This document shows positions 1 to 13,212 of a stretch of DNA of 64,000 nucleotides, piece by piece. How positions within the stretch are numbered: the stretch's first letter is position 1; every line of letters begins with the position of its first letter. The notes under the pieces were generated by a model. That model made no database searches and was not told the origin of the DNA. It saw nothing but the letters and a program-made list of their open reading frames with translations. Position numbers and translations under genes: made by a program. Origin of the DNA: Candidatus Omnitrophica bacterium UBA6233 (GTDB lineage Bacteria > Omnitrophota > Gorgyraeia > Gygaellales > Profunditerraquicolaceae); contig DJWJ01000011.1 in NCBI GenBank assembly GCA_002440965.1, positions 61,427-125,426 of the forward strand. The letters are read 5' to 3'.

Positions 1-49
1 GTACATCGCAGTAATTCCATACTTTCTGCACTATTTCATTTTCGCTCAT
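1..49 (-). CDS. hsdM: Type I R-M methyltransferase subunit HsdM, 5' end only. The gene starts at 49 and runs off the window edge.
   Basis: The reverse complement of 1-49 reads ATG AGC GAA AAT GAA ATA GTG CAG AAA GTA TGG AAT TAC TGC GAT GTA, translating to MSENEIVQKVWNYCDV. This matches the conserved HsdM N-terminus (compare EcoKI ..DLVAKLWKLCDNLRDGG). Only 16 codons are visible. Confidence 0.5.
   Translation of the reverse strand, partial: MSENEIVQKVWNYCDV
3..49. repeat. Direct repeat copy A (matching 1040-1086), covering the hsdM start region
   Basis: About 43 of 47 nt are identical to 1040-1086. The mismatches are ctgc versus tggg and one g/a. Both copies encode MSENEIV(Q/P)KVWNYCDV on the minus strand. 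Confidence 0.8.
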
Positions 50-317
50 AGATTTTACCTATCTTTCTTCATGCCATAGACTTAAATTTGTAGATTTCTC
101 AACAGAATATGTTATAATATTAATATGAGGCATTTAACTCTTGCTAAAACAAACCGCTACTTAAGAAACCGCGTTGCCCGTGCGATTTTACTCGGACGTA
201 CTACCATTAGTTCGGCCGCAGTGGAAGGTATCCATACTTGCAAACACACTCGCGCCAATGGCGTTTCCCCCAGCCGTTCAAAACACAATAGCGCCGCCGT
301 TTTATCCAAATAACATT

Positions 318-977
318 CTACACGTTTCTATCCGCTTTTTTCAAAGAATATTCTATAATCTTTCGAAAAATTATTTTCATCGGTACATAATTATGGCTAA
401 GCGCGGCACGCACTGCTGAAAAATACGGCTTTTCCCTCTTCTCTCCGGAAATAAGATAGAAATCAAAAGGCGGAAGTCCGGCCTGTAACCCCATCAATAC
501 CGCCAATAATCTCGCTAATCTGCCGTTACCTTCCCGAAAAGGATGGATCAGGACTAATTCAGCATGCGTTAGCGCAATAGCGTAACTTACCGCATCGATA
601 TCTCCCCGGCACGGCGTATAACGCGCAAGAATCTCCTTCTCAAAATCATCCATCAGCTGGGGAATATATGCAGCCGAGGCGAACTGGAATCCAGATTTGC
701 CGATATTGATATTGCGATATGTCCCTGCCCATTCGTATATCTTCCCTAACCAATTCTTATGCATAGCGCGAATGTCTGCCGCCGTAAATCGTTTGCCGGA
801 ATCTATGGTTTCAATATATTTCCCTAAAATTCGCGCGTGCTCGGAAATCTCCAAAGCCTCCATATCGCGCAAACGGGTAATCCCGCGCAGATTCATTAAA
901 ACCTTGCCGCGAGAACCAGGCTGAAGTTGCGCCTCCGGATAACCCGACACATCATATTTATCGCCTTTAGCGTTCAT
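318..977 (-). CDS. fic: Fic/Doc family protein (probable AMPylator or toxin)
   Basis: A 219 aa ORF carries the canonical Fic motif HPFREGNGRLARL. A GGAAG RBS lies 6 nt upstream. The gene sits 10 nt downstream of the hsdM-remnant stop. Confidence 0.85.
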   Translation of the reverse strand: MNAKGDKYDVSGYPEAQLQPGSRGKVLMNLRGITRLRDMEALEISEHARILGKYIETIDSGKRFTAADIRAMHKNWLGKIYEWAGTYRNINIGKSGFQFASAAYIPQLMDDFEKEILARYTPCRGDIDAVSYAIALTHAELVLIHPFREGNGRLARLLAVLMGLQAGLPPFDFYLISGEKREKPYFSAVRAALSHNYVPMKIIFRKIIEYSLKKADRNV

Positions 978-987
978 ATAATCTTCC

Positions 988-1086
988 TTATTTCAAATGC
1001 TCCACATAATCGCCGTAGCTGACGCCATCATCCCACAGCACATCGCAGTAATTCCATACTTTTGGGACTATTTCATTTTCACTCAT
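988..1086 (-). pseudogene. Truncated duplicate of the hsdM 5' end (32 codons then TAA)
   Basis: The reverse complement gives MSENEIVPKVWNYCDVLWDDGVSYGDYVEHLK*. This aligns with the HsdM N-terminal domain (EcoKI LVAKLWKLCDNLRDGGVSYQNYVNELASLLFLK) and stops where HsdM would continue. Confidence 0.6.
1040..1086. repeat. Direct repeat copy B (matching 3-49)
   Basis: See copy A. The similarity also extends weakly into the RBS-side sequence (ataggtaaaatct versus aataggaaatttt). Confidence 0.8.
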
Positions 1087-1102
1087 AAAATTTCCTATTA
1101 TA

Positions 1103-2002
1103 CTAATCCATACGATGTATCCAATACCATTCTCTAACATCCTGTCCATTATCTTTTAAAGCATAAACCGCAACAAAAGCAAAAGTTCCTTTTTGATCCA
1201 ATGAATCAATATTAAAAAGCACCGGTGATTTAGAAAATGGATTAGGGATAGGATTAAAACCTATTAATCGCGTTGAAACTTTAATATTTTCAAAATCCGC
1301 CTTCAACCCAACAATATCTTTAGACGTTTCCTGACATTTATCAACAGCCCATTTCCAAAATTTACGATAATCCCATGAAGATTCCTTTCCGCCCTGTGGA
1401 ATAGCATGCCAATAACCTTTACTTGCCAAATCAGAATCAAACAATTTCGCACCTGGCGTAACCCATTTATTAACTAATTTGACATAATCTCGCCAAGGAC
1501 AATCTCTAACTTCAGAAAACTCATCTAATACCTCATTTTTCCCCGGTCTTACCCATCTCTTATTGCGATAAACTTCTAATGGCATAATTGCACCGGTTCT
1601 TCCAAAAGTAACTACAAAAATTCCAAGATGTCTGCGTTTATTATTTGTATCAGCTAAATAATGGTTAAACTGTAACCAAATAGATTGACCAAAGGTTTTA
1701 AACTGATATTCTTTACATGGAGTAAGAATTAAAAAACTGTCAGTATTTTTTGCAATCAAATAAGTTTTTACATTAGGCAAAAATGCTAATGTTCCATAAT
1801 CACGTTTATAGAATTCTTGCCGGCTAATTATTTCGTTTTGTGAATCTAATAAAACTTGCTTTTCTACAGTTTTTTCTTTCTTTTCGATAGAAGGATTAAA
1901 GAAATTTACACTAACGCTAATAATTGCAGCTAATATAGTACAACCGCCACAAATTAAAGCGGCTATAATACCAACACTAAATCTTTTCTTATTTTTTATC
2001 AT
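1103..2002 (-). CDS. Hypothetical membrane-anchored protein (N-terminal TM helix), function unknown
   Basis: A 299 aa ORF has the N-terminal hydrophobic segment VGIIAALICGGCTILAAIISV. It overlaps the upstream ORF by 14 nt. I recognise no domain in it. Confidence 0.55.
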   Translation of the reverse strand: MIKNKKRFSVGIIAALICGGCTILAAIISVSVNFFNPSIEKKEKTVEKQVLLDSQNEIISRQEFYKRDYGTLAFLPNVKTYLIAKNTDSFLILTPCKEYQFKTFGQSIWLQFNHYLADTNNKRRHLGIFVVTFGRTGAIMPLEVYRNKRWVRPGKNEVLDEFSEVRDCPWRDYVKLVNKWVTPGAKLFDSDLASKGYWHAIPQGGKESSWDYRKFWKWAVDKCQETSKDIVGLKADFENIKVSTRLIGFNPIPNPFSKSPVLFNIDSLDQKGTFAFVAVYALKDNGQDVREWYWIHRMD

Positions 2003-2612
2003 TTATTTGTTTAATAACTAAATGTTTTTCCATCTCTCCAAGATTATCAGTCCACACTCCATCCCAAGATATTTCAAACACATCATATTTCCGAGAAATA
2101 AAATTATCCGCAACGATTTCTAATTCAACGCGCATAGTTGAATTAGCAGATATATGTCCTTCAAAATTATTAGGCGTTCCGTAAGTACAAATCCTGAATT
2201 TTTTTTCAACAAGAAAACCAAAATCGGCAGTATCTTCTTTGGATATCATTGGAAACATTGGATGACTTTCTGCCGGAGCCCAAGTTAATTGCTGAGGAAC
2301 AAATACATTTGCCCGGTAAAAATTACCATCTGCCTTCTTTTTTAGTATTCCAACAAGTAATATTCGCACATTCTTAGCAGAAGACCAAGGGCGTTTATTT
2401 TTAACAGATAAATGATAATAAATAACCGATGGGCCATTACTAAAATGCGTTAATTCACCTTTAAAGTTTTTAGGTTCTAACACTAAACGAGGACCAGCAA
2501 AGAAATCTCTAAATTTGTCACCCCAGATAGCCATAACAGCTACAGCAACAGTTCCAACAGCAGTTAACCAATCCGTTAGCTTTCCAAAATTTACAGAAAT
2601 ATCACACGCCAT
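1989..2612 (-). CDS. Hypothetical membrane-anchored protein, function unknown
   Basis: A 207 aa ORF has the N-terminal hydrophobic segment LTAVGTVAVAVMAIW. It lies 19 nt downstream of the hsdS stop. I recognise no domain in it. Confidence 0.5.
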   Translation of the reverse strand: MACDISVNFGKLTDWLTAVGTVAVAVMAIWGDKFRDFFAGPRLVLEPKNFKGELTHFSNGPSVIYYHLSVKNKRPWSSAKNVRILLVGILKKKADGNFYRANVFVPQQLTWAPAESHPMFPMISKEDTADFGFLVEKKFRICTYGTPNNFEGHISANSTMRVELEIVADNFISRKYDVFEISWDGVWTDNLGEMEKHLVIKQINDKK

Positions 2613-2631
2613 CGTCCCCTCCTTGCCAATA

Positions 2632-3873
2632 TCACTTTTTACTTAATTCTAACTTCCCCTTCTTTATTCGTTCCAACAAACTCTCGACAGGCTCATCATT
2701 CGGATCCGGCTCAACCAACTTGCCTTCGAAGGCTTTTTTCAAAATACTCTGTTTCAGTCGCTCAATCTTCTCCAGTCCTTGCTCAACGGCATCCTCAAGC
2801 AATTTTGCCCGTTCAAAACGAGATTCAATATTCTCAACAATCTTCACCTGTTCTTCAGGAGAACAAAATTTAAACGGAACCTTTTTAAAGTTTCTAGATG
2901 AAATCCCTGCAACCGTTGTCCCGGTTTTAGCTCTTTCTAATCTCTTTTGAAAAAAAGTTGACATTATCTGATACATTACGAATTTATCAAAATTGTCCGA
3001 TCTTAATAAAACCATTCTTTGCGCAATCGAGAATTTATAATCCGGGATTAGAGAAACTTCTCCCATAGGAGCTTCAGTAGTCATTAAGACATCACCTTTA
3101 TGTGGAATTCCTCTAGTCATATACTTCTTGTAAGTCTCCTCAGTAACATATCGAATATTTTCAAGTCTTATTTGACCATTCCGAATGTTTGAAGTCCGCA
3201 AATGTATAACACCCTTATCCGCATACGGTGGAGTTCTCCCGCGATAATCAATGATTTTAAAAATACTCTCAATAGGTTTTTCTTGTTCAATTTTCTCAAA
3301 CGCCGATTTAAACACTGCCTGGCGATAGCGCTTAATTTCCTGCTGCACGCGCTCCAGCGAATCCTTGGCGCTATCCAGCCGCGAAAACAAGCTCTCAATC
3401 TTGGCGACAATACGTTTTTGTTCGGGATAAGAAACTACCGGCACAGTCAGACACTCTAATTCTTTCGTTGGCACACGAAGCTGGCCAGCGGTTCCTGTCA
3501 TTCGGCCCCGTAAAAACCTTCGAACACTCGCCTGGAGTAAAAAGTAAAAGTAAAACTTATTGTCGACACAATCTGGCAAACGTATGACATGGAATTCCGT
3601 TGAACCCAATCCAATCCCATTCCTCAAACCTCCCATCAAGGCAATTTTACCGTTTTCCATACATGGCGTAATCTTGGCAAAAATAATATCTCCATCTTGA
3701 AATAGGGTAAACCTTTTTAACCCATCCGAAAGTTTAATCGTTTCCGACAAATCAAACCTGCCACTTTCCACTTCAACAGCTTTCATCGACAGGAAACTTA
3801 CTGTAACATCTGTCTTGGCCCGAGGGATCGCCTTCGCCGGATTAATTATTGCTACATCACCAAGTATAATCAA
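2632..3873 (-). CDS. hsdS: Type I R-M specificity subunit HsdS (two target-recognition domains)
   Basis: A 413 aa protein has two TRD-like halves separated and followed by conserved helical spacer regions (..LFSRLDSAKDSLERVQQEIKRYRQAVFKSAFE.. and ..ESRFERAKLLEDAVEQGLEKIERLKQSILKKAFEGKL). This is the typical HsdS layout. Confidence 0.85.
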   Translation of the reverse strand: MIILGDVAIINPAKAIPRAKTDVTVSFLSMKAVEVESGRFDLSETIKLSDGLKRFTLFQDGDIIFAKITPCMENGKIALMGGLRNGIGLGSTEFHVIRLPDCVDNKFYFYFLLQASVRRFLRGRMTGTAGQLRVPTKELECLTVPVVSYPEQKRIVAKIESLFSRLDSAKDSLERVQQEIKRYRQAVFKSAFEKIEQEKPIESIFKIIDYRGRTPPYADKGVIHLRTSNIRNGQIRLENIRYVTEETYKKYMTRGIPHKGDVLMTTEAPMGEVSLIPDYKFSIAQRMVLLRSDNFDKFVMYQIMSTFFQKRLERAKTGTTVAGISSRNFKKVPFKFCSPEEQVKIVENIESRFERAKLLEDAVEQGLEKIERLKQSILKKAFEGKLVEPDPNDEPVESLLERIKKGKLELSKK

Positions 3874-3980
3874 CTGTGCTCCTTAAATTCAATAATTTTC
3901 GCTCACCAATTCACCACAAAAGTTTAACCGTTATAAAGCGAAATGAACCATTGTAACTTATAAAGTTTTTGCTTACTTGA

Positions 3981-4706
3981 TTAAGAAATAAGGGATTCGA
4001 GATTGTTACGCAATTGAGCTTTAACAACATCAATATTAAGAGACCAAATATCAGCTAAAGACGAAATTGCCCCTTGAGTTTCCCATGGCATGATCGGCAA
4101 TTTACCATTAGTGACAAACGGCCCATCCGTCTCCAGAAGAACCTTCTCACGAGGCATTAACTTTATCAATTCCCGCCCTTTCGCACCTAATATCATTGCA
4201 GGACCGACACTAAACCAACAGCCCATTGTAATAGCCCGCTGCAATTCATTCGTTGTCCCAGAAAACCAATGTAATATCGCTGTCCCGGATCGAGGATATT
4301 CTTCAAGCAAATCCAGAACAGCATTGACAGCACACCTCGAATGAATACTCATAATCCTTCCACCTTGCTTTTCACACTCAGCTAAAACATTTAAAAATAT
4401 ATCCTTTTGCAATGGAAAGAATTCCTGATTCTTTGGCGTTCCGTCAAGACCTATCTCTCCAATAAACTGAACCTTCGCAACATCTGCCAGTAACATTTTT
4501 AATTCATTCGCTTTTTTATTCGCTATTTCAGGATGCAGCCCAAGGGCAACCTTAATATTTGTATATCCCGAGAATCTTTGTGACGTCACTTGCCAAGCTC
4601 TAGGGCTAGTCGTTACGACTAGAGTAAAAATATTTCGCTTTGAAACCATTGGAAGCAACTTTAAAGAATCCTGATAAAGATCAAGATGGGAATGAAAATC
4701 AATCAT
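3981..4706 (-). CDS. TatD-family metal-dependent nuclease/hydrolase (QatD-like)
   Basis: A 241 aa ORF has the N-terminal MIDFHSHLD (the HxH motif of TatD) and a TIM-barrel-type conservation pattern. It overlaps the upstream QueC-like gene by 4 nt. Confidence 0.8.
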   Translation of the reverse strand: MIDFHSHLDLYQDSLKLLPMVSKRNIFTLVVTTSPRAWQVTSQRFSGYTNIKVALGLHPEIANKKANELKMLLADVAKVQFIGEIGLDGTPKNQEFFPLQKDIFLNVLAECEKQGGRIMSIHSRCAVNAVLDLLEEYPRSGTAILHWFSGTTNELQRAITMGCWFSVGPAMILGAKGRELIKLMPREKVLLETDGPFVTNGKLPIMPWETQGAISSLADIWSLNIDVVKAQLRNNLESLIS

Positions 4707-5983
4707 ATAACCCCATGCTTTATTAAAAGCTGCCCGAGTTCATCCAACCCCCGAGATAAGACTCCTTCATATTGAGGACGATCAGTCGATGACGCAAAAG
4801 AAAGCGCTCCGCCTGCGAAGCGTTGTATCCCATATTTTTTATAATTTAAATAGGCCATAGCCACCGCCCCAATATCGTTAGGACCAAATTCACGGCCCGC
4901 TTTAGACAAGTCTTGAAAATGATAATTATTCACCGTGGTATCAGTTAATTGTGCTTTTAAGAAGGCTGCACGCCTAACCAAGCAAGGCAAACATCTGCCA
5001 CAATGAACTAGTTTATATCGACCAAACTTCCCACAACTTGTAGACTCCCCTATTAAACCAGTCAATTTTGCCTGATCACAACATCCACTAAGAATCTCGC
5101 CTTTAGTTTTAAATCGAAAAGGGAAAGATAATTTTACTGGGATACTTAGCATGTCCCAAATTTCTTGAAGGCCTCCAGCATAAAGGGGATGCGTGGTTTT
5201 CGTGCTCAAGCTGCCGCTTCTTCCTGAATTAAGTGATGGATTAAGACTCATAAAGCCGTTCTCGGGAACAACAACTTCTATAGGTGCTTCGGATCGAGAA
5301 TTTAAGGCAGATGCCGCAAGAAGCCCGTATGCAAAAAAGATTATTGAGCGTCCCCGAGTTGAACTTTCACACCTATTAAACAAGCTTACTGGATGGCTCC
5401 AATTAAAATACCGACTAGAAGCACCCAAGGTGTTTGCAAACCTCATTTGTGATTTTCTATCACCTTTGACGACTTGAGAAACAAATAAAGGTTTTCTCCC
5501 CGTAGCTGTCAAGTCAATTGCGCCAACAAGACTATCCATACCACCCGAAAGTAACGAAATACAATCTGCATCATAAGAAGCGAGAACTGATGCTTGTGGA
5601 GGTGGCTCAGCTCCAGGAAGAAAGTTTAATTTCCAAAAATCACCAGTTAAAACACGTAAAATCGATTCTAACCGAGATTTTTGTTGTACCCATAGTCCGT
5701 GTTCACAAAGATAAACATCCACTTCAATAACGCGCGTCCATCCATCGGAACTGTTCGACCTCTTACATGATAAATCAGCAGCTGCCACTGCTAACGCAAT
5801 TGACAGAAAATCCCACACGCGTACAGTCGGACTAAAACCTTTCTTTTTAACATCACTACGCAATGTTGGCGCAATGTGCCCAACACCATCACGATGTGAA
5901 TAAGAATACATCGAGAAATAGTTGACGTCATTCACTAGTGTTGCTGGCAAAATAGAATCTGGGGCACAAATAACTTTGTTCAT
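4703..5983 (-). CDS. QueC-like PP-loop ATPase with an extra N-terminal domain (QatC-like)
   Basis: A 426 aa ORF has the PP-loop SLLSGGMDSLVGAIDL about 145 aa from the N-terminus. It has a C-terminal Cys cluster CGKFGRYKLVHCGRCLPC, like the Zn site of QueC. No queD, queE, queF or tgt neighbours are present. Confidence 0.8.
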   Translation of the reverse strand: MNKVICAPDSILPATLVNDVNYFSMYSYSHRDGVGHIAPTLRSDVKKKGFSPTVRVWDFLSIALAVAAADLSCKRSNSSDGWTRVIEVDVYLCEHGLWVQQKSRLESILRVLTGDFWKLNFLPGAEPPPQASVLASYDADCISLLSGGMDSLVGAIDLTATGRKPLFVSQVVKGDRKSQMRFANTLGASSRYFNWSHPVSLFNRCESSTRGRSIIFFAYGLLAASALNSRSEAPIEVVVPENGFMSLNPSLNSGRSGSLSTKTTHPLYAGGLQEIWDMLSIPVKLSFPFRFKTKGEILSGCCDQAKLTGLIGESTSCGKFGRYKLVHCGRCLPCLVRRAAFLKAQLTDTTVNNYHFQDLSKAGREFGPNDIGAVAMAYLNYKKYGIQRFAGGALSFASSTDRPQYEGVLSRGLDELGQLLIKHGVI

Positions 5984-6837
5984 ATAGCACCTTCATATAC
6001 ACTAAAAGTATTCGCTAATGCTTCTTGAATAACAGTTGCCATCTGTCTCGAATCTAGATTGGCATTCCCTTCTCGCAACTGACGAATCTGGGCAGCAATT
6101 TCAGCCCTCATGTATTCACCCATTTCATTCACCCGTTGCACAACGTCTTTCGGATCTAACTTGGCGCTTTCAAAAAGTTGGCCGATATCAAGCTGCAATC
6201 GTGTGGATGCCTCATTTGCCAAAAAAAGCTCAACCACTGTCCAAATATCCGCGTCGTTCATTTTAAGCAAATTCACATTCGGCTGAATTCGTAACAAATC
6301 AGACATTGCACCATTCATAGAGTTTCGACACGATTCTTCATCAAGGCTCCCTCCATCTGATACAACCAAACGGCCGATTTCATCAATCACATCCCTTGCC
6401 GTTGACGTCCTAGCCACTAAAGCATTAATCCACTGGTTAATACGTTGATCAGTACCATCTCGTACTGTTTGAAAAAACGAAACCAGGCCAGCCGCAGTCC
6501 TAGCTGACAAACGCATACGTTTCGCCACGTTTTTCGCACCGCCCATCCCCAGATGGGAATAATGACCAACTGCTTTTCTAAAATGCCCCTCGTCTCCCGT
6601 TCTAGCAAAAATCCCCATTTCTCTTCGGGCATTTGCAAATCGTCGAGCAGGAGCAACACTCACCGGCTGATTCACTTCCAATGGTTGATCTGGTGGCGCA
6701 GTTTCCCTTGGATTATTCCCATTAGGCTCATCTGCTGGCACACTAGGAATAATCAATGGATTACCAATCTGATCAAGCCAAGGAGGATCAAAACCTACCC
6801 CGGCACCAGGCCCTGAACTTGAAGTAGACGTTCCCAT
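5980..6837 (-). CDS. QatB-like protein of unknown function
   Basis: A 285 aa ORF has a Gly/Ser/Pro-rich N-terminus (MGTSTSSSGPGAGVGFDPPW..) followed by a helical region. Its position between the NTPase and the QueC-like gene matches Qat gene order. Confidence 0.5.
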   Translation of the reverse strand: MGTSTSSSGPGAGVGFDPPWLDQIGNPLIIPSVPADEPNGNNPRETAPPDQPLEVNQPVSVAPARRFANARREMGIFARTGDEGHFRKAVGHYSHLGMGGAKNVAKRMRLSARTAAGLVSFFQTVRDGTDQRINQWINALVARTSTARDVIDEIGRLVVSDGGSLDEESCRNSMNGAMSDLLRIQPNVNLLKMNDADIWTVVELFLANEASTRLQLDIGQLFESAKLDPKDVVQRVNEMGEYMRAEIAAQIRQLREGNANLDSRQMATVIQEALANTFSVYEGAI

Positions 6838-8706
6838 TTATTTTCTTCCTTGCATTGAGATAGCATTCTTAACTTGTACAGGAGTATTCGCATCCTGCGA
6901 CCAGCGCTGCAGCATATCTTGAGCCCACGCCTCTCCTTTAATATGAGGAATCAGTGGCGCGGGGCGATTAGCCGCTGGTATCGTTTCAAGATTTGATACA
7001 AATAATGGCCCTAGTCCCGCGAACGCCCTAGTTACATGAAGACATCGAATTAAAGATGACAACGACCATTGCTCCGCCCGCGAAAGTCTCAATAATCGGG
7101 ACAATATACTTCCACACTCTACTTCACCAAGAGTTTGCAATTGAGTAATCATAGGCTGCTGAATAACTTCTCTTATCTCGGCTAACGCTGTTAACAATTC
7201 TTTCCCTCTAACAGAAAGTTCATCAAAACTTGCAAAATTCATCGCCTTATCTCGGCTCAAATATAATAATGGGCGAAGATCAATAGCAGCTAAACGTGGA
7301 GTAAGTTTTAACCATTCGGCAATAAAGGGTACATTCCAGCAAGGATCAGGTGAGCTATACACCTCTCCTTTTGCAAGAGCATCCTCAATTGCCTTCAAAA
7401 AAGAAGGTTTTCCATCGCTGCTTTCGGAAACTTTTCTTACTAAATATTCAAATGCCAAAGCCGGGGCACAACGCTCAAATAGCTGCAATTTCACTAATTC
7501 CTCAAAGGCTACAGTCATACCTTGGCTTCTTGCAACCGTATCTCGAATCATGAGATTATTTAAAAATCTTTTTATCAATCTAGGATTACCTGCGATATTG
7601 TCTGCCGTCGCCATAAGACCGGCAAGTTGATCTGCCAAATCAATTTGAGAACCAATCTTGGTGACTTCTGCACCAAAAGCCTCTTCCATTGTCTTCCGTG
7701 TCAGACAGCCTTTCCAAGAATCTCGAGCTGCTTCTAAAATTTTAACTTGTGCCTCTGCTAATACTTCTTTTAAAATTACCCCACGCCTCTGTTCCAAGTC
7801 AGCTAACAACAGAATCAAATAGGCTTTTACTTCACTGATGCTTAACCGAGGGACTTCCAGCGGAACCTGTATTAACTTGTCAAAATAACTAGTGACTAAA
7901 TTATCTTCCAAGTCATTAATCCCAAAATGCGCTCTAACCGCATTGCGGATCATCTGCTGATCAGCGGCAATAACAAAAGCCGTGCGGGGCAAAAATAGAA
8001 GTAACCGCATGGCCTCCAATGTAGAAATCGCAGTATTAGGAAGACATCGATCAAGGTCATCAACTAAGACAACCAGAGTAATATCTAAATCTTTTAGGAC
8101 CTCCTCAAAAGCTATTCTTAATCCTGCTATTTCTTTTGGAAGCGACTTTAATTCTTTATCTCTTAACAGACCTTTCAGTTCAGGCTCAAGCTCGGCATAA
8201 GCATTCTTAAGCTTCGTTAAATCTTCCTCAGACGGATTCCCCTGAGAGTTCGCAAGTCCACTGACAGCCCCAATGACTGCTCCAAGAGGCCCAGCCATCG
8301 TACCGCCGACAGCCATTCCGGTTAAAACCGGTGCAACAAGTTTTCCGACCCGGAACCATTTAACACGTTTTGCAAATTCGAGAGCCTTATCCAACGGTGT
8401 TTTTCTTTTTTCTGCTTCATCAAGCAAAGCGTCGGAAACAACTTGTAACAATGCCATTCTGGCATCATCGAAACCCTGATAAAGCCAAGCGTTAAAATTT
8501 ACAAAAATGTATTTCTTTCTTGATTCTTCATCTTTCTGTAAACAAACACCTATCATTTTCACTAACGATGATTTGCCAGATCCCCAGTTACCAGACACGC
8601 CTATCGACACCGGCTGACCATTTGATTCGCGAATAAGTTGAGCTGCTGTTTCTGCAACAACAGTAAAATTTAGTAAATCCGTCGTCGTTTCTACATCGTG
8701 CCACAT
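6838..8706 (-). CDS. KAP-family P-loop NTPase (QatA-like)
   Basis: A 622 aa ORF has the Walker A motif GVSGNWGSGKSSL (the KAP signature GxWGxGKS) and the Walker B motif LVVLVDDLDRC. It has a hydrophobic insert LVAPVLTGMAVGGTMAGPLGAVIGAV typical of KAP NTPases. An AGGAGG RBS lies 6 nt upstream. Confidence 0.75.
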   Translation of the reverse strand: MWHDVETTTDLLNFTVVAETAAQLIRESNGQPVSIGVSGNWGSGKSSLVKMIGVCLQKDEESRKKYIFVNFNAWLYQGFDDARMALLQVVSDALLDEAEKRKTPLDKALEFAKRVKWFRVGKLVAPVLTGMAVGGTMAGPLGAVIGAVSGLANSQGNPSEEDLTKLKNAYAELEPELKGLLRDKELKSLPKEIAGLRIAFEEVLKDLDITLVVLVDDLDRCLPNTAISTLEAMRLLLFLPRTAFVIAADQQMIRNAVRAHFGINDLEDNLVTSYFDKLIQVPLEVPRLSISEVKAYLILLLADLEQRRGVILKEVLAEAQVKILEAARDSWKGCLTRKTMEEAFGAEVTKIGSQIDLADQLAGLMATADNIAGNPRLIKRFLNNLMIRDTVARSQGMTVAFEELVKLQLFERCAPALAFEYLVRKVSESSDGKPSFLKAIEDALAKGEVYSSPDPCWNVPFIAEWLKLTPRLAAIDLRPLLYLSRDKAMNFASFDELSVRGKELLTALAEIREVIQQPMITQLQTLGEVECGSILSRLLRLSRAEQWSLSSLIRCLHVTRAFAGLGPLFVSNLETIPAANRPAPLIPHIKGEAWAQDMLQRWSQDANTPVQVKNAISMQGRK

Positions 8707-8965
8707 GAGTGACCTCCTAAAATATATTTTCTAATTGCTTTACTAGAACCAAATATTTTCCTAATTTTAATAATTCCCTTAAAACTTTCCAGCCCCGCGT
8801 TGATGTTCTCAATGATCTTAGTAGTTAAAACATCCTAACCGAGAAGATTATCGATGCCGATTAGACTCTGTCCCTTGAACTCAAAAGTGTCAAAACTAGT
8901 TTTATCCCGATAACAAATATATCTATCTGAACCTATAAAACAATTTAGATATAGTTGTTCACCAC

Positions 8966-11644
8966 TCACCCCACCAACGCCGTATTCAACTCCTCAATCA
9001 CTCCATCCAGATTATCTCCAAATACTTCTTTAGCCTTAATAATTCCTCCGCTGGCGCTGAAGGGCGGCAGGAGGAAATCGTTTTTATCCACACTACCGGA
9101 ACCGGCGATGTGCTCAGAGATCATCGTCAGCCACTGGATTTGTTTTGCGCTGAAAGTCTTACCTAAAAATTGCTGGTTTTTCAGCCATTCCTGAAAGCGA
9201 TGCTCAACATGTTCCTTAAACGGCTCCAGGACCTCCTCTTGATGTATAGCAAAACGCACCAGGGAAACGATATCGGTTAATTGTTTCTGAATCGAGGCCG
9301 GGCGCACTTTGGATTTTTCCAGCTGTTCATAGGCGCGCCAGAGAGTATCGGTGGTAAAGCCGTAAGGCGGCATTTCGATTCTTTCGGCTAATTCGCGGAT
9401 CTCTTCATAGGTAACATGACGCTTTTTATACGGCAGGTTATAGAGGATCTGCAAAGCAGTAATTTTGTCTTTGTTCTCGGCGATAAACTGCTCAAATTTC
9501 TTGACGATGGACGAAGCTTTATCTTTGGACTGCTGATCGAATCCTGACTGGGTAATTGTATCTATAGTAACAGTATCAATGGTTTGTTCGGTCTTTTTAT
9601 GAAGCACGGTTAAAAGCTCGCGAAATTCAGGATTATCAAAAGGCGCGCAGGCTTGGTCCCGATCAGCGACGATATCCGGATCAATGACTGAGACCAGATC
9701 GTTGACGATGTTAGACAAAGACTTGCCGCCGGATACGGCCTTGATCCGCTCAATATCCCGGGGTTCCAGATCCAGATCCAGGCGCGACAAGCGCGAGGCC
9801 AGGCTGGATAAAGTGTCATTGTCGCGGATGCCGATGGCAATATTATTCAGAAGTTTTAGCGTAGGAACGCTTTTTTGCCTATCCAACGGGAAGCTCTGGG
9901 TCTTCTCGCTTTCGCACACGCCTACGGCGTCAACCAGAATAAAATGGGTCTTAGTTTTGGCGTCAGGAGTTACAGCCATAAGGTCATCGGAATCAATTAC
10001 CCGCGTGCCGCGGCCTTTCATCTGCTCAAAGTATATTGCGGATTTAACGTCGCGCATAAAAAGAATACATTCCAGCGGCTTAATGTCGGTACCGGTAGAA
10101 ATCATGTCCACGGTTACGGCAATCCGGGGATTGAAACTATTGCGAAAGGCGGCGATCAGGTCGTCGGTGCTCTCCTGGGTGCGGTAGGTGATCTTCTTAC
10201 AGAAATCATTGCCTTTGCCGAATTCTTCGCGCACAATCTCGGTGATGTCTTCGGCGTGGCTGTCGTCTTTGGCAAAAATCAGGGTTTTGGGCACTTCAGT
10301 GCGGCCGGGGAAAATTTCCGTAGAAAGTTTATCCTTAAATTCCCGAATAACCGTGCGGATCTGGTCTTTAACTACAATACTGCGGTCAAGCTGATCCGGG
10401 GCATATTCGATGTCTTCGTCCAACTTTTCCCAACGGAGTTTGCGAGTAAGCCGGTCGCGTTTATCCACGTAGAAACCGGAAGGGATTTTGCCACCCTCTT
10501 CGGTGGTCTTAGTGCGGATGCGGTACACATCAAAGCCAACGTTGACTTTATCCGCGACTGCCCGGTTATGATCGTATTCCATGACTAAGTTTTTGTTGAA
10601 AAAACCGATGGTCTGATTTGAAGGAGTTGCGGTTAGGCCGATGATAAAAGAATCAAAGTATTCCAGGACCTGACGCCAAAGGTTGTAAATGGAGCGGTGG
10701 CATTCATCAACGATGATGAAATCAAAGGTTTCTACGGGAATTTTGCCGCTGAATTGCACTGCTTGCGGATCAATATCCGGGGCATCGGATTCATAAAGAG
10801 ACTTTTCATCGAGACTGGCGTCCAAATCCTGGTCACCTTTAAGCATGGAAAACAGGCGCTGAATAGTGGTAATGCAGACTTTGGCGCCGGGGTCAAAGAC
10901 GTTAGTGGTCATGTGCTGGACGATATAAAGATCAGTAAAGTTGCGATTATCGTCAAAAGGGATATAATTCTGGAACTCTTTTCTGACTTGCCGGCCCAGG
11001 GAACAGCGGTCAACCAAAAAGAGAATCCGGCGGGCTTTGGCAAATTTAATCAAGCGGTAAATCTCGCTGATAGCGGTGTAGGTTTTGCCACTGCCGGTAG
11101 CCATTTGCAACAGGGCGCGCGGCTTGGCTTGGCGCAAAGATTTTTCCAGGTTAGTGATAGCCTCGATCTGGCATTGGCGGAGATTATAGGGATCCAAAGG
11201 CGGTAATTCGCGCAGGCGCTGACGCAAAGATTTATCCTGTTCAAGCCAATCAGCTAACGTATCCGGGGAATGAAAAGCGAATACGCGGCGCGAACGGGCG
11301 TCCGGATCGCGGTTATTGCGGTAAAAAGTTTCTATGCCGGTGGATTCGTAAGCAACCGGAAGAATATCATCAACTCGGGGAAGATTATCGAGAACCGAAG
11401 AGTTATAGCGGGCGGTTTGCTCGGCAACTCCGGAAAGAGTAATCCCCTCAGCTTTAGCTTCTACTGTACCCACGGCTTTGCGGTCGACAAAAAGCATGTA
11501 ATCAGCCGGGCCGGATTTGGTAGGAAATTCACGCACAGCTACTCCCCTGCCGGCGGAAAGATTAATCTTACGGATATCCTGAATAATCCAGCCTGCTTCT
11601 TTTAATAACCCGTCAATCACCTGCCTCGCTTCGGCTTCGCTCAT
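8966..11644 (-). CDS. hsdR: Type I restriction enzyme R subunit HsdR
   Basis: An 892 aa ORF has the HsdR N-terminal nuclease region MSEAEARQVIDGLLKEAGW..KSGPADYMLFVDRKAVGTVEAKAEG. It has SF2 helicase motif I (MATGSGKTYTA) and motif II (IIVDECHRS). Its GC content is higher than the rest of the window. Confidence 0.9.
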   Translation of the reverse strand: MSEAEARQVIDGLLKEAGWIIQDIRKINLSAGRGVAVREFPTKSGPADYMLFVDRKAVGTVEAKAEGITLSGVAEQTARYNSSVLDNLPRVDDILPVAYESTGIETFYRNNRDPDARSRRVFAFHSPDTLADWLEQDKSLRQRLRELPPLDPYNLRQCQIEAITNLEKSLRQAKPRALLQMATGSGKTYTAISEIYRLIKFAKARRILFLVDRCSLGRQVRKEFQNYIPFDDNRNFTDLYIVQHMTTNVFDPGAKVCITTIQRLFSMLKGDQDLDASLDEKSLYESDAPDIDPQAVQFSGKIPVETFDFIIVDECHRSIYNLWRQVLEYFDSFIIGLTATPSNQTIGFFNKNLVMEYDHNRAVADKVNVGFDVYRIRTKTTEEGGKIPSGFYVDKRDRLTRKLRWEKLDEDIEYAPDQLDRSIVVKDQIRTVIREFKDKLSTEIFPGRTEVPKTLIFAKDDSHAEDITEIVREEFGKGNDFCKKITYRTQESTDDLIAAFRNSFNPRIAVTVDMISTGTDIKPLECILFMRDVKSAIYFEQMKGRGTRVIDSDDLMAVTPDAKTKTHFILVDAVGVCESEKTQSFPLDRQKSVPTLKLLNNIAIGIRDNDTLSSLASRLSRLDLDLEPRDIERIKAVSGGKSLSNIVNDLVSVIDPDIVADRDQACAPFDNPEFRELLTVLHKKTEQTIDTVTIDTITQSGFDQQSKDKASSIVKKFEQFIAENKDKITALQILYNLPYKKRHVTYEEIRELAERIEMPPYGFTTDTLWRAYEQLEKSKVRPASIQKQLTDIVSLVRFAIHQEEVLEPFKEHVEHRFQEWLKNQQFLGKTFSAKQIQWLTMISEHIAGSGSVDKNDFLLPPFSASGGIIKAKEVFGDNLDGVIEELNTALVG

Positions 11645-11730
11645 ATTCTTTTCTCAAATAAAAACCCGACCGTGTGGCCGGGTTGAATATAGTTATAAAT
11701 ATAAAATGATAAAAAATTAGATAAAGACAT
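11641..11730 (-). CDS. Candidate 29-codon leader ORF translationally coupled to hsdR (ATGA overlap)
   Basis: The reverse complement is AGGAGaaaaaATG..., encoding MSLSNFLSFYIYNYIQPGHTVGFLFEKRI*. The stop TGA overlaps the hsdR ATG as ATGA. A hairpin plus T-run lies inside this ORF. It falls below the ORF-track length cutoff. Confidence 0.35.
   Translation of the reverse strand: MSLSNFLSFYIYNYIQPGHTVGFLFEKRI
11652..11684 (-). terminator. Intrinsic-terminator-like hairpin plus T-tract on the minus strand
   Basis: On the minus strand the sequence is AACCCGGCCACACGGTCGGGTT followed by TTTATTTG. The stem is 6-8 bp with a 4-nt loop. It ends 8 nt before the hsdR ATG. Confidence 0.35.
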
Positions 11731-11750
11731 TTTTTCTCCTAAGTTGTTTG

Positions 11751-11779
11751 ATTATAACACTTTTGGGGGGAGAAATACA
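11751..11779 (-). promoter_or_regulatory. Putative sigma70 promoter with an extended -10 (TGtTATAAT) upstream of the hsdR leader
   Basis: The minus strand reads gTGtTATAAT at 11760..11751. The -35 (TGTATT) is weak. The predicted TSS is about 14 nt upstream of the AGGAG of the leader ORF. Confidence 0.3.
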
Positions 11780-11805
11780 GGAAAAAGCGGCCCCCTGATT
11801 TTTTA

Positions 11806-13212
11806 CTATCGGGGTGAGTTTTTTAGCAATAGGATTACTTGGGAGAGGTTGCGCAGGGCGGATTCCGGGCGGTAGGAGGCGACTTTGGAGTTTACTTCCC
11901 TCACCTTTTCATAGCCGTAGGTTTGGATTAGCCCCAGGTAGGTTTCGATTTTTTCTAAGTCTTTGGGCTCATTGAGTTGGGCGGAAAGCTGGCAGGCTTG
12001 TTGAGTCAAATCAGGGGTGTATTTATCGGATAATGCCTGGAGCGCTTGCCGGAATTGTTCCGGGGATTGCAAAGGATTCAGGCGGTAGTCGTTAGCCGGG
12101 CGTTTGTCGAATTCTCCTTCTTTTTCGGGCCTGTGCCTGTAAACTTCCAGAATATTTTCCTTTTCCAGTTCGGTTATGGCGCTGGTAATCGAGCGCTCAG
12201 AGATGTAATATATCCGGCTTAAGTCGGCGTTACTTCTGAACCAATAGGGATTATGGCTGGATCTTTGGGCTTCGCTCAGAGAAACTAAAAACATATATTT
12301 TGCCGCAAAGGAAAGTTTTTGGCAGAAACCATAATCCCAATAAGTATCCGGAATAGTAATGTTTTCCGTAAAGGATGTGTAGATGAGTTCAAGATTTTTG
12401 CTCCAGGGTTTATGCTGGATGAGGCCGTATTTTCGGGTTAGCTTTCTTAGAGGCTGAAAAAGATTAAAATAGTAATTATTGGTGTAACCCAGGGCTTGGC
12501 CGAATTCCGGATAGTTGATTTTTATGACGGATGAATGTTCGCTTTGGGCTTTTTTTGCCAGATACAAATACAGGTCAAAGGCTTTTTCCGAGTGGCTGGT
12601 GAAGAGTTCAAATAAAAGAGGATTGGGCGCGGAAGTTAAAAGGCTAACCGGCAGTTTCAAACCCGGCAGTTGTTGAGGCTGGATAGGCGGATTAAGGCTT
12701 AATTCGATTTTAGAGATATAATCCAGCAGTTTCCCGGCTTGCCTCGGGCTTTCGGTGTAAACGGCGAATTCGTAGTTGTCGCGCAAAGAGGCGCGGGTCC
12801 AGTTAAAACTGCCGAGGATACAAATTTTGGAATCGATGACCAGGCCTTTGCCGTGAAGCACGGCTTTAGAGCTATCGATGGCTGCATTTACGCCGGCTTG
12901 CCGGAGGCGTTTATAGGCGTTGTAATTGACTTTGAAGGTAGTGTCATCCAGGATAACCTTCACGTATACGCCTCTATTTTTAGCGCTGATCAGGCCTTCC
13001 AGGAGGATTGAAGCGGGGTTATCAGTGGGCGCGGGTTCCACGCTAATGAGATAGATGGCTACGTAGATTGATTTTTGCGCTTTTTGGATAGCTTGGAGGG
13101 TAGTCAGGAAATAATCTTTGCCGATGAGAATATCGCTGCGCTCGCCGGCAAAAACAGGCGCAAAGCTAAAGGCAAATAAAGTTATAAGGATTATGAGTAA
13201 GTATCGACGCAT
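11806..13212 (-). CDS. Secreted PLD-family (single HKD motif) protein with a C-terminal region of unknown function
   Basis: A 468 aa ORF has an N-terminal signal-peptide-like segment MRRYLLIILITLFAFSFAPVFAG. It has the HKD motif LHGKGLVIDSKICILGSFNWT. The C-terminal ~250 aa are unassigned. The coding sequence is GC-rich. Confidence 0.7.
   Translation of the reverse strand: MRRYLLIILITLFAFSFAPVFAGERSDILIGKDYFLTTLQAIQKAQKSIYVAIYLISVEPAPTDNPASILLEGLISAKNRGVYVKVILDDTTFKVNYNAYKRLRQAGVNAAIDSSKAVLHGKGLVIDSKICILGSFNWTRASLRDNYEFAVYTESPRQAGKLLDYISKIELSLNPPIQPQQLPGLKLPVSLLTSAPNPLLFELFTSHSEKAFDLYLYLAKKAQSEHSSVIKINYPEFGQALGYTNNYYFNLFQPLRKLTRKYGLIQHKPWSKNLELIYTSFTENITIPDTYWDYGFCQKLSFAAKYMFLVSLSEAQRSSHNPYWFRSNADLSRIYYISERSITSAITELEKENILEVYRHRPEKEGEFDKRPANDYRLNPLQSPEQFRQALQALSDKYTPDLTQQACQLSAQLNEPKDLEKIETYLGLIQTYGYEKVREVNSKVASYRPESALRNLSQVILLLKNSPR

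Follow-up and report, generated by a model that had tools for sequence, protein, structure and literature searches.

Why does a small toxin-type gene in a type I restriction-modification (R-M) operon stand between two copies of the start of the methylase gene hsdM? This question is raised by one end of a 64,000-nucleotide (nt) stretch of DNA (here called the window) from Candidatus Omnitrophica bacterium UBA6233 (contig DJWJ01000011.1, positions 61,427 to 125,426), which begins inside such an operon of a Candidatus Omnitrophota bacterium. The EF-Tu encoded in the window is identical to proteins from Candidatus Omnitrophota metagenome-assembled genomes. Read along the minus strand, the order of the locus is hsdR - QatABCD - hsdS - orf207 - orf299 - hsdM' - fic / ORF62 - hsdM, where hsdM' is the truncated copy of the hsdM start. 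All of the genes discussed here lie on the minus strand, with the exception of ORF62. We consider it probable that recombination left the truncated copy as a scar at the border of an embedded Fic toxin/inhibitor cassette and that this scar has possibly been co-opted as a leader open reading frame (ORF).

The original prediction for this locus had described a direct repeat of about 47 bp with about 91% identity. The identity was borne out, since positions 3-49 and 1040-1086 are identical at 43 of 47 nt (91.5%). The pair is real, but its true length had been underestimated. A repeat search lengthened the pair to 54 nt (3-56 and 1040-1093, 89% identity), and contig L001, which is the reverse complement of the window (window position = 10978 - L001 position), carries a repeat of about 107 nt; the 47-bp figure reflects truncation of one copy by the window edge. 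In L001, the repeat spans from about 12 nt 5' of the ATG, a region that includes the ribosome-binding site (RBS), to codon 31. The copies are 1037 nt apart and are 89.7% identical overall and 91.5% identical over the 94 coding nt. When the repeat was sought elsewhere in the 64-kb window, a degenerate 41-mer fitting both copies had these two matches only (there were none in 100 shuffles), and no further hsdM-like piece was found there by tblastn.

Both copies encode the HsdM N terminus on the minus strand, as had been proposed. The left copy reads MSENEIVQKVWNYCDV and then leaves the window. Extension into L001 (10929-12383) confirmed that it is the start of an intact hsdM, which encodes 484 amino acids (aa) with matches to HsdM_N (6.3e-13) and N6_Mtase (1.1e-72); NPPF is among the invariant columns of this full-length protein. 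The right copy, also in agreement with the original prediction, is an ATG-started ORF of 32 codons, MSENEIVPKVWNYCDVLWDDGVSYGDYVEHLK-TAA (1086-988, with the TAA at 990-988), and fic starts 10 nt past its stop, at position 977, with its own RBS (GGAAG) ahead. HsdM homology in the right copy is confined to codons 1-31 and is followed by K-TAA. The catalytic domain is lacking, and the HsdM_N match (E = 0.034 over 23 residues) is under the cut-off. Past codon 31, the remnant reads AA-TAA-GGAAG..ATG(fic), and the live gene reads ..ACGTATTTGTTG (LTYLLFLKM). Two changes, R18W and Q30H, are specific to the remnant and absent from every live copy. These data establish the right copy as a dead 5' remnant of hsdM and not a methylase gene.

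The Fic protein of the window was found on 14 public contigs. The 10 that were listed represent 10 samples from JGI, ENA, and Logan, and the order remnant-fic-hsdM was identical in every contig of sufficient reach. The locus is present, for example, in JGI 3300001594, SRR13427971, and ERZ27247363. Because the two copies are about 10% diverged, collapse or expansion of a repeat during assembly is excluded. Mis-assembly had been raised as a danger from the outset, and strain variants mis-joined into a repeat could be suspected from the short contigs L010 and L182, which begin or stop within the remnant, as is typical of repeats. However, the same structure was recovered in 10 samples and in assemblies of three origins, the copies are distinct in sequence, and the junction is conserved in sister lineages. 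We regard the chance of such an artefact as negligible.

The unit between the repeats (63-992) is 0.93 kb long and contains only fic and ORF62, the latter having escaped the original prediction. Fic matches the Pfam family Fic (2.8e-17) and the PADLOC profile PDC-S04 (PDLC04839; 2e-65, covering 203 of 205 profile positions), a match that makes it a candidate defence gene. AMPylating-type proteins are recognized by a Fic domain with HxFx(D/E)GNGRxxR, and this protein has such a motif, HPFREGNGRLAR, at residues 145-156; the motif residues are invariant across 33 homologues. The nearest solved structures are those of the class I toxins Fic-1 (8wt0) and VbhT. Among GTDB species representatives, the closest Fic is 53% identical. 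The majority of distant Fic homologues do not adjoin hsdM, indicating that Fic is not obligatorily tied to R-M systems.

ORF62 encodes 62 aa on the plus strand and is convergent with fic, with 4 nt between the two stop codons. It belongs to no Pfam and no NCBIfam family, and its sequence SAAVEG matches the Fic-inhibitory motif [ST]xxxE[GN]. We fetched 80 Fic loci from GTDB genomes with the Fic profile, covering Nitrospirota, Omnitrophota, Bacteroidota, and candidate Patescibacteria, among others. In 29 of these 80 loci, an opposite-strand ORF of 37-116 aa (mostly 50-80 aa) abuts or overlaps the 3' end of fic and carries S/T-x-x-x-E-G/N, and a convergent inhibitor-like ORF is present in all of the sister loci of the window. 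This recurrence indicates that ORF62 is not a chance ORF. An alignment of 24 family members revealed the pattern TNPYL(R/K)(D/N)...SSxA(V/I)EG(I/V), in which S30, E34, and G35 are invariant. When the family profile was compared with 177,635 PDB sequences, the sole match was the Fic antitoxin BiaA (5eu0_B), a weak match (E = 0.57) aligned through the motif.

An extended -10 element, TGTTATAAT (110-118), lies 6 nt ahead of the ORF62 ATG. The TGnTATAnT element and its spacing to the ATG (6-7 nt) are conserved in five lineages, and the remaining spacer is variable. This conservation suggests that ORF62 probably has its own transcript and that this mRNA is leaderless. A generic scan of positions 1-4000 for sigma-70 promoters and terminators gave 13 against 11.9 for shuffled sequence, no excess over chance. 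In the mechanism that we propose, Fic would AMPylate a cellular target, and the glutamate of the ORF62 SxxxEG helix would hold Fic off; fic and ORF62 would together form a cassette of the toxin-antitoxin or abortive-infection type. Among class I toxins, the precedent for the AMPylated target is GyrB/ParE.

The Fic proteins of the sister loci are 88% (L011), 77% (L015), and 76% (L012-14) identical to that of the window. These loci have the order hsdR - variable genes - hsdS - variable genes - remnant - fic - ORF62 - hsdM. The window and its sisters have in common a block that runs from remnant codon 24 through fic, the spacer, and hsdM, and the junction ...GAGCAGTTGAAAT(A/G)A-RBS-ATG is identical in L011, L012, and L015. 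The shared block and the identical junction argue for one ancestral event. This event is old, since the junction is common to lineages in which Fic is only 76-88% identical. The sister remnants are interrupted: between codons 1-14/16 and codons 24-31 lie 160-600 nt of other sequence, which in L011 includes a 162-aa ORF and a further scrap of the hsdM start. A perfect 10-bp hairpin (ATTTCCCAGA-TGCCG-TCTGGGAAAT) is present in the filler between the two remnant parts in L012 (3150-3190) and L015 (1325-1365).

The original prediction had also pointed to relatives that might have an uninterrupted hsdM and no fic, and such loci exist. L176 and L177 encode an HsdM about 91% identical to that of the window and have the order hsdR - TIR/STAND - hsdS - Ymh - 193aa - hsdM, without fic. 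L176 is collinear with L012 over Ymh, the 193-aa gene, and 41 nt at the start of hsdM, a segment that corresponds to the L012 remnant; hsdM of L176 starts where the L012 remnant starts. L012 and L176 represent an occupied and an empty site. The absence of fic from L176 is either ancestral or the result of a deletion between the repeats. For the orf299 context of the window, no empty-site variant was found, as all orf299 contigs that reach far enough have both the remnant and fic.

An element of about 230 nt is found near the same boundary in two loci, directly 5' of hsdM in L178 (6749-6973) and 5' of the remnant in L015 (986-1232), with 82% identity between them. It has a tRNA-like end, GGGTTCGAT(T/C)CCCTTTGCCTCCA, and it matches both ends of the Rfam transfer-messenger RNA (tmRNA) model with 23.3 bits (E = 9e-6), under the gathering score. 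ARAGORN detected no tRNA gene in L001, L011, L012, or L015. The element could be a relic of an attachment (att) site or a small tRNA-like RNA cassette.

Partial copies of hsdM are not peculiar to the window and its sisters. A profile search of JGI metagenomes gave 80 unselected loci with HsdM 60-66% identical to that of the window, and each hsdM was compared with its own flanks. The canonical order in this family is hsdR-hsdS-hsdM, and hsdS often abuts hsdM. Pieces of the 5' end of hsdM were present in 12 loci, upstream only and in direct orientation only; their first position is nt ~1-16 of hsdM, and their last codon is 19, 22-24, 27, 42-45, 72, or 155. Pieces of the 3' end, from within the last ~190 nt, were present in 3 loci, downstream only and likewise direct. 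Downstream of hsdM in L169 (1650-9450), the terminal 50-150 nt of the gene are partially repeated in seven copies, all in direct orientation and with small unrelated genes between them; this array mirrors the 5' remnant arrays. Long internal pieces of hsdM were not found in the flanks. There were only short, weak, or split matches in L121 and L153, and the internal matches in L144 were 26-38-nt repeats on both strands.

The 5' remnants are associated with genes embedded between hsdS and hsdM. Among the 54 loci in which an upstream hsdS was detected, remnants occurred in 9 of 25 with an hsdS-hsdM gap of >1 kb and in 0 of 29 with a smaller gap (Fisher p = 4e-4). As a control, end duplications of hsdR were sought in 42 family loci, and none were found. 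Repeat lengths in the other loci range from ~50 to 463 nt. Arrays of the form [remnant-cassette]n-hsdM are present in L032, L133, L140, L178 (an NCBI Omnitrophota metagenome-assembled genome), and L011. The three remnants of L032 stand ahead of fic/ORF68, a gene of 126-176 aa, and a gene of 217 aa. Fic modules that lie between hsdM starts, with different breakpoints, also occur in the distant lineages L032, L159, L024, L025, and L063, and are seen in Thermodesulfovibrionia, Nitrospirales, and Betaproteobacteria as well as in further metagenome loci. This family-wide pattern, including the 3' remnants downstream of hsdM, extends beyond the original prediction.

Across these loci, the outer boundary of the repeat is the end of the hsdM homology, the inner boundary is variable, and the orientation is direct. 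This geometry points to homology-anchored capture in which only the products with an intact hsdM persisted. For the window, we propose that the two-gene Fic module entered hsdM within its first ~95 nt and brought along a new copy of the hsdM RBS and 5' end. The insertion would have kept the methylase intact and left the old RBS and codons 1-31 as a dead remnant directly 5' of fic. The event would be old and would have involved no transposase. It would be one case of a process that recurs in the hsdR-hsdS-hsdM family, the strongly conserved hsdM receiving cassettes at its start or at its end; because only events that regenerate the whole of hsdM survive, truncated 5' copies would pile up upstream and 3' copies downstream. 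Three routes could lead to this outcome. A circularized fragment carrying the cassette and an hsdM end could integrate by a single crossover (Campbell-type integration). A break in hsdM could be repaired from an ectopic cassette-hsdM template and closed by end joining (one-ended homologous repair). Where a remnant is already present, a double crossover could use the remnant and hsdM as arms. None of the three requires a dedicated recombinase.

Once formed, the scar may have acquired a use. The ATG and the frame are kept in 19 of 22 remnants, and at six independent junctions the remnant ORF stops at -4 to +10 nt from the start of an ATG-started next gene. The stop-to-start distances are +10 for fic in the window, +2 for fic in L032, -4 for fic in L159, +7 for orf217 in L032, and +10 for the 217-aa gene in L133, and ORF162 in L011 is joined by a TAATG overlap. 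In the window, the remnant would be a 32-codon leader ORF that, by way of its hsdM-derived RBS and ATG, supplies ribosomes to fic 10 nt on. RNA structure at the remnant-fic junction was unremarkable (minimum free energy z-score, -0.54). The original prediction had held that the leader is translationally coupled to fic. Judged from the gene arrangement, this coupling is plausible, and the recurrence of the arrangement at six junctions speaks for it, but it does not hold in L012 and L015.

Several observations weigh against the account given so far. No donor sequence, circular intermediate, or recent event was caught, and the recombination route is one that we infer. The cassettes diverge more between loci than hsdM does (for example, Fic 46% versus HsdM 59%), so direct evidence for recent cassette transfer is absent. 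The data come entirely from metagenomes, and about 100 loci of a single HsdM subfamily were surveyed. ORF62 is linked to antitoxins by the motif and the weak profile match (E = 0.57). A PADLOC-predicted PDC-S04 that another group tested in its native host had no defence activity (PMC12409345). Concerning the leader, several of the "-4" overlaps depend on mechanically chosen GTG/TTG starts, and coupling is broken in L012 and L015 with fic still present, which indicates that it is not indispensable. The remnant pieces are 87-94% conserved, compared with ~78% for fic DNA, and are at least equal in this respect to neighbouring coding DNA. Since the remnants are over-conserved, a purely neutral scar is insufficient, and gene conversion or selection is needed. 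When remnant and hsdM were compared within genomes, over 43 nt with few sites, a few genome-specific shared variants were seen (for example, L002 T21/A24). Finally, all three L032 remnants break after codon 22/23, a hint of a favoured site or of a particular enzyme, and we keep a local site preference as a possibility on these grounds.

The two origins offered in the original prediction were insertion with a long target duplication and recombination between hsdM alleles. The part that involves recombination of hsdM sequence fits better; a long target duplication fits poorly with the 10% divergence of the copies, the varied breakpoints, and the lack of a transposase. Target-site duplication by a transposon or insertion sequence (IS) is not supported, as the unit has no transposase and the repeat is ~107 nt long, ~90% identical, and variable in length elsewhere. 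No terminal inverted repeats bounding the unit were present among the best 25 of 41 inverted-repeat pairs in positions 1-12000. An integrase-borne island at a gene end is likewise not supported; no integrase lies between or beside the repeats in the window and L001-L015, and the breakpoints vary. No tyrosine-recombinase domain was detected among the scanned proteins, in a scan that included no search aimed at IntI or attC. An integrase or transposase could also have acted in trans on a specific site, the repeat then being of the att type or a long target-site duplication. The breakpoint common to the L032 remnants would suit such an enzyme, as would the recurrence of breakpoints near codons 22-27 and 42-45 across several loci. 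A Y1-transposase-like protein of ~177 aa (a partial IS200-like domain) is encoded between remnants in L178 (4938-5474) and downstream in L001 (15737-16270), and the tRNA/tmRNA-like fragment just 5' of hsdM (L178) or of the remnant (L015) is typical of island att sites. Integrases that target and regenerate gene ends are known (PMC4701971). On the other hand, the 0.93-kb unit consists of fic and ORF62 without a recombinase, no recombinase is common to the remnant-bearing loci in the visible flanks, breakpoints range from codon 19 to codon 155 across loci, and the copies are ~10% diverged. The outer boundary is always at the end of the hsdM homology, as homology-driven events predict, and the known hsdM-targeting elements disrupt the gene and leave 2-8 bp repeats (PMC4701971). 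We therefore find site-specific insertion in trans quite unlikely.

A different history would start from a second, tandem type I system, in which a deletion of the upstream hsdM left 31 codons beside a pre-existing fic. Copies that are ~10% apart resemble two alleles, and L001 and L002 differ by mosaic recombination tracts at hsdM. Yet only one hsdM is present at the empty-site locus, in the position of the remnant and with the same upstream genes, and neither hsdS nor hsdR debris lies by the remnants. The arrays of two to seven remnants separated by small cassettes, together with their 3' mirror image, would require many systems to have been deleted exactly to the gene end, and internal hsdM matches are only short, weak, or split. 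This history is very improbable. It could also be argued that the remnant is kept mainly for its function, the hsdM initiation region and leader driving cassette genes poor in translation initiation regions (TIRs), with its origin incidental. This would explain the retention of ATG and frame in 19 of 22 remnants, the six junctions with a stop at -4 to +10 nt, conservation above that expected of neutral DNA, and the start of the cassette gene 2-10 nt from the junction in three independent fic captures. It is at odds with the persistence of fic in L012 and L015 after coupling was lost, with the several remnants that finish 40-350 nt from the next gene, and with the 3' remnants downstream of hsdM, which are unable to play a leader role. 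We think function unlikely to be the main reason, and it complements homology-anchored capture rather than excluding it.

The features of the locus are collected in Table 1.

Table 1. Features at the fic-bearing end of the window (window positions; L001 positions where stated)
Feature	Position	Strand	Evidence or remark
Functional hsdM, 5' end (codons 1-16)	1..49	-	MSENEIVQKVWNYCDV; whole gene L001 10929-12383
Left (live) repeat copy, clipped by the window edge	1..62	-	Complete copy L001 10916-11022, ~107 nt
hsdM-ORF62 spacer with hsdM RBS; plus-strand extended -10 TGTTATAAT (110-118)	50..124	.	Sequence
ORF62, putative alpha-inh antitoxin; SAAVEG at 212-229	125..313	+	Motif, conservation
fic, 219 aa, intact HPFREGNGRLAR motif (510-545)	318..977	-	Pfam, PADLOC
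Junction: end of hsdM homology (after codon 31), AA-TAA, GGAAG fic RBS overlapping the stop	978..992	-	
hsdM' remnant ORF, 32 codons + TAA	988..1086	-	R18W, Q30H
Right (dead) repeat copy including the duplicated RBS region	993..1098	-	L001 9880-9985
orf299	1103..2002	-	Between hsdS and remnant
orf207	1989..2612	-	Between hsdS and remnant
hsdS, specificity subunit	2632..3873	-	Methylase_S; PADLOC Specificity_I 1.9e-94
QatABCD defence system, between hsdR and hsdS	3981..8706	-	PADLOC QatA 2e-124, QatB 8e-31, QatC 1e-86, QatD 3e-81
hsdR, restriction subunit	8966..11644	-	Pfam ResIII, EcoEI_R_C, HSDR_N
PLD-like gene directly 5' of hsdR	11806..13212	-	468 aa, PLDc_2

With hsdR and hsdS in the window and hsdM in L001, the predicted gene set of a type I R-M system is complete in one locus. 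Two further genes stand between hsdS and the remnant. The overlap of orf299 and orf207 is 14 nt; neither has a Pfam or PADLOC family, and NCBIfam gave none for orf207 and two sub-threshold matches for orf299. A homologue of orf299 occupies the same position in L015. The two genes are candidates for an embedded system. The interval between hsdR and hsdS is a second variable slot, occupied in the window by QatABCD. In relatives, this slot lies at 4171-7088 (L002/L003), 1538-4084 (L176), and 1315-3922 (L013), and its contents there are a 195-aa gene with an AAA_13 ATPase, TIR/STAND, or an OLD-like ATPase/TOPRIM with a UvrD-like helicase (Gabija-like). Homology between L001 and L002 resumes at the central conserved region of hsdS. 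The two contigs are ~97% identical, and their differences cluster at L001 10800-11000, which comprises the spacer and the hsdM 5' end, and at 11300-11600, a segment internal to hsdM. This clustering indicates mosaic recombination tracts inside hsdM. On the 3' side of hsdM, L001 encodes Abi_2, RhuM, a SWIM-domain protein, and the Y1-transposase-like gene. The PLD-like protein encoded 5' of hsdR has weak matches to DrmC-type defence nucleases and is possibly another component of a defence island.

Defence genes embedded in type I R-M operons are well established, with PrrC in EcoprrI, DarTG2 between hsdS and hsdR in enteropathogenic Escherichia coli (EPEC), and the PADLOC PDC candidates, PDC-S04 among them (Payne et al. 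2024), as examples. Like these, the Fic module is a toxin-type module within the operon and on the operon strand, and neighbouring slots are filled by QatABCD here and by AAA_13, TIR-STAND, and Gabija-like genes in sister strains. Unlike the published cases, the slot here is the hsdM start, and the gene order is hsdR-hsdS-hsdM. Studies of embedded genes leave the origin open, speaking of a "genomic sink" and a "potential recombination hotspot" (Payne et al. 2024), and the sections consulted, together with term searches, yielded no mention of partial duplications of hsdM ends bounding embedded genes. A full-text literature search for truncated, partial, or duplicated hsdM beside embedded genes returned only integrative and conjugative elements (ICEs) that disrupt hsdM.

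The cassette itself resembles the class I Fic modules VbhA/VbhT, YhfG/EcFicT, and AntF/Fic-1 in having a Fic protein of ~200 aa with the canonical HxFx(D/E)GNGRxxR and a separate protein of ~60 aa with the inhibitory S/TxxxE(G/N). In the class I systems described, the inhibitor gene is immediately upstream of and co-directional with the toxin gene (PMC13327609). The putative inhibitor gene described here instead lies downstream in convergent orientation and abuts or overlaps the fic stop codon, as in 29 of the 80 related loci. To judge from these gene orders, the convergent layout is a variant of the class I Fic arrangement.

The closest parallels to the scar are elements that insert at a gene end and supply a substitute for it, which are known for tRNA genes and, in streptococcal ICEs, for the 3' end of rplL and the 5' end of rbgA (PMC4701971). 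As with these elements, the target of the Fic cassette remains intact, a partial copy of the gene end forms a direct repeat, and tandem accretion leads to arrays. The gene-end elements are large and have their own tyrosine integrase and a fixed core, whereas the cassettes described here are 0.5-2 kb long, with varied breakpoints and no consistently linked recombinase. Other streptococcal ICEs, of the Tn1806 type with serine-integrase triplets, insert site-specifically into hsdM, disrupt it, and leave 2-8 bp repeats (PMC4701971). They share hsdM as a target with the present cassettes, but here hsdM is regenerated and the repeat is ~107 nt long and diverged.

In naturally transformable bacteria, one homologous segment suffices for Campbell-type insertion-duplication and for homology-facilitated illegitimate recombination. 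When a circle carrying a 5' or a 3' gene fragment integrates, the product is a direct repeat of one truncated and one complete copy, and its outer boundary is at the end of the homology. This geometry matches what is seen on both sides of hsdM. Such events are known as laboratory or transformation phenomena, and to our knowledge neither has been described as the way in which R-M operons gather defence cassettes in nature. A parallel for the leader is ORF-11 at attI1 of class 1 integrons, a short leader ORF that boosts the translation of cassettes without an initiation region of their own. The remnant is likewise a short upstream ORF with a good RBS that ends beside the first cassette gene, to which it could deliver ribosomes. 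Unlike ORF-11, it is the fossil of a neighbour's start and not part of a recombination site; neither IntI nor attC is evident at the locus, and neither was searched for.

The cassette and its embedding therefore have ordinary counterparts, and it is the gene-end scars, the two-sided arrays, and the leader-ORF arrangement that appear to be undescribed. In this widespread Fic family, the convergent arrangement of the inhibitor-like gene differs from that of the class I systems compared (PMC13327609). Genes nested in R-M, BREX, and similar operons are used to discover immune systems ("guilt by embedding"), and the hsdM-end remnants are a physical footprint of that embedding. They give the boundaries of a cassette to the nucleotide and, in arrays, the order of captures, and they could delimit candidate defence cassettes, for example the pair orf207-orf299 ahead of the remnant. 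In addition, they show selection for an intact methylase and point to homology-anchored recombination over a dedicated mobile-element enzyme. More broadly, and only tentatively, the ends of hsdM in this widespread hsdR-hsdS-hsdM family may serve as recombinase-independent docking sites for small defence or toxin cassettes, with hsdM regenerated at each capture and the truncated copy becoming both a portable homology arm and, on the 5' side, a leader ORF through which translation of the cassette gene is coupled to the initiation signals of hsdM. If this is true, the homology arm would let a cassette enter or leave any related hsdM by ordinary homologous recombination. The family would then have integron-like cassette arrays without an integrase, and the embedding of defence genes in R-M operons would have a concrete mechanism.

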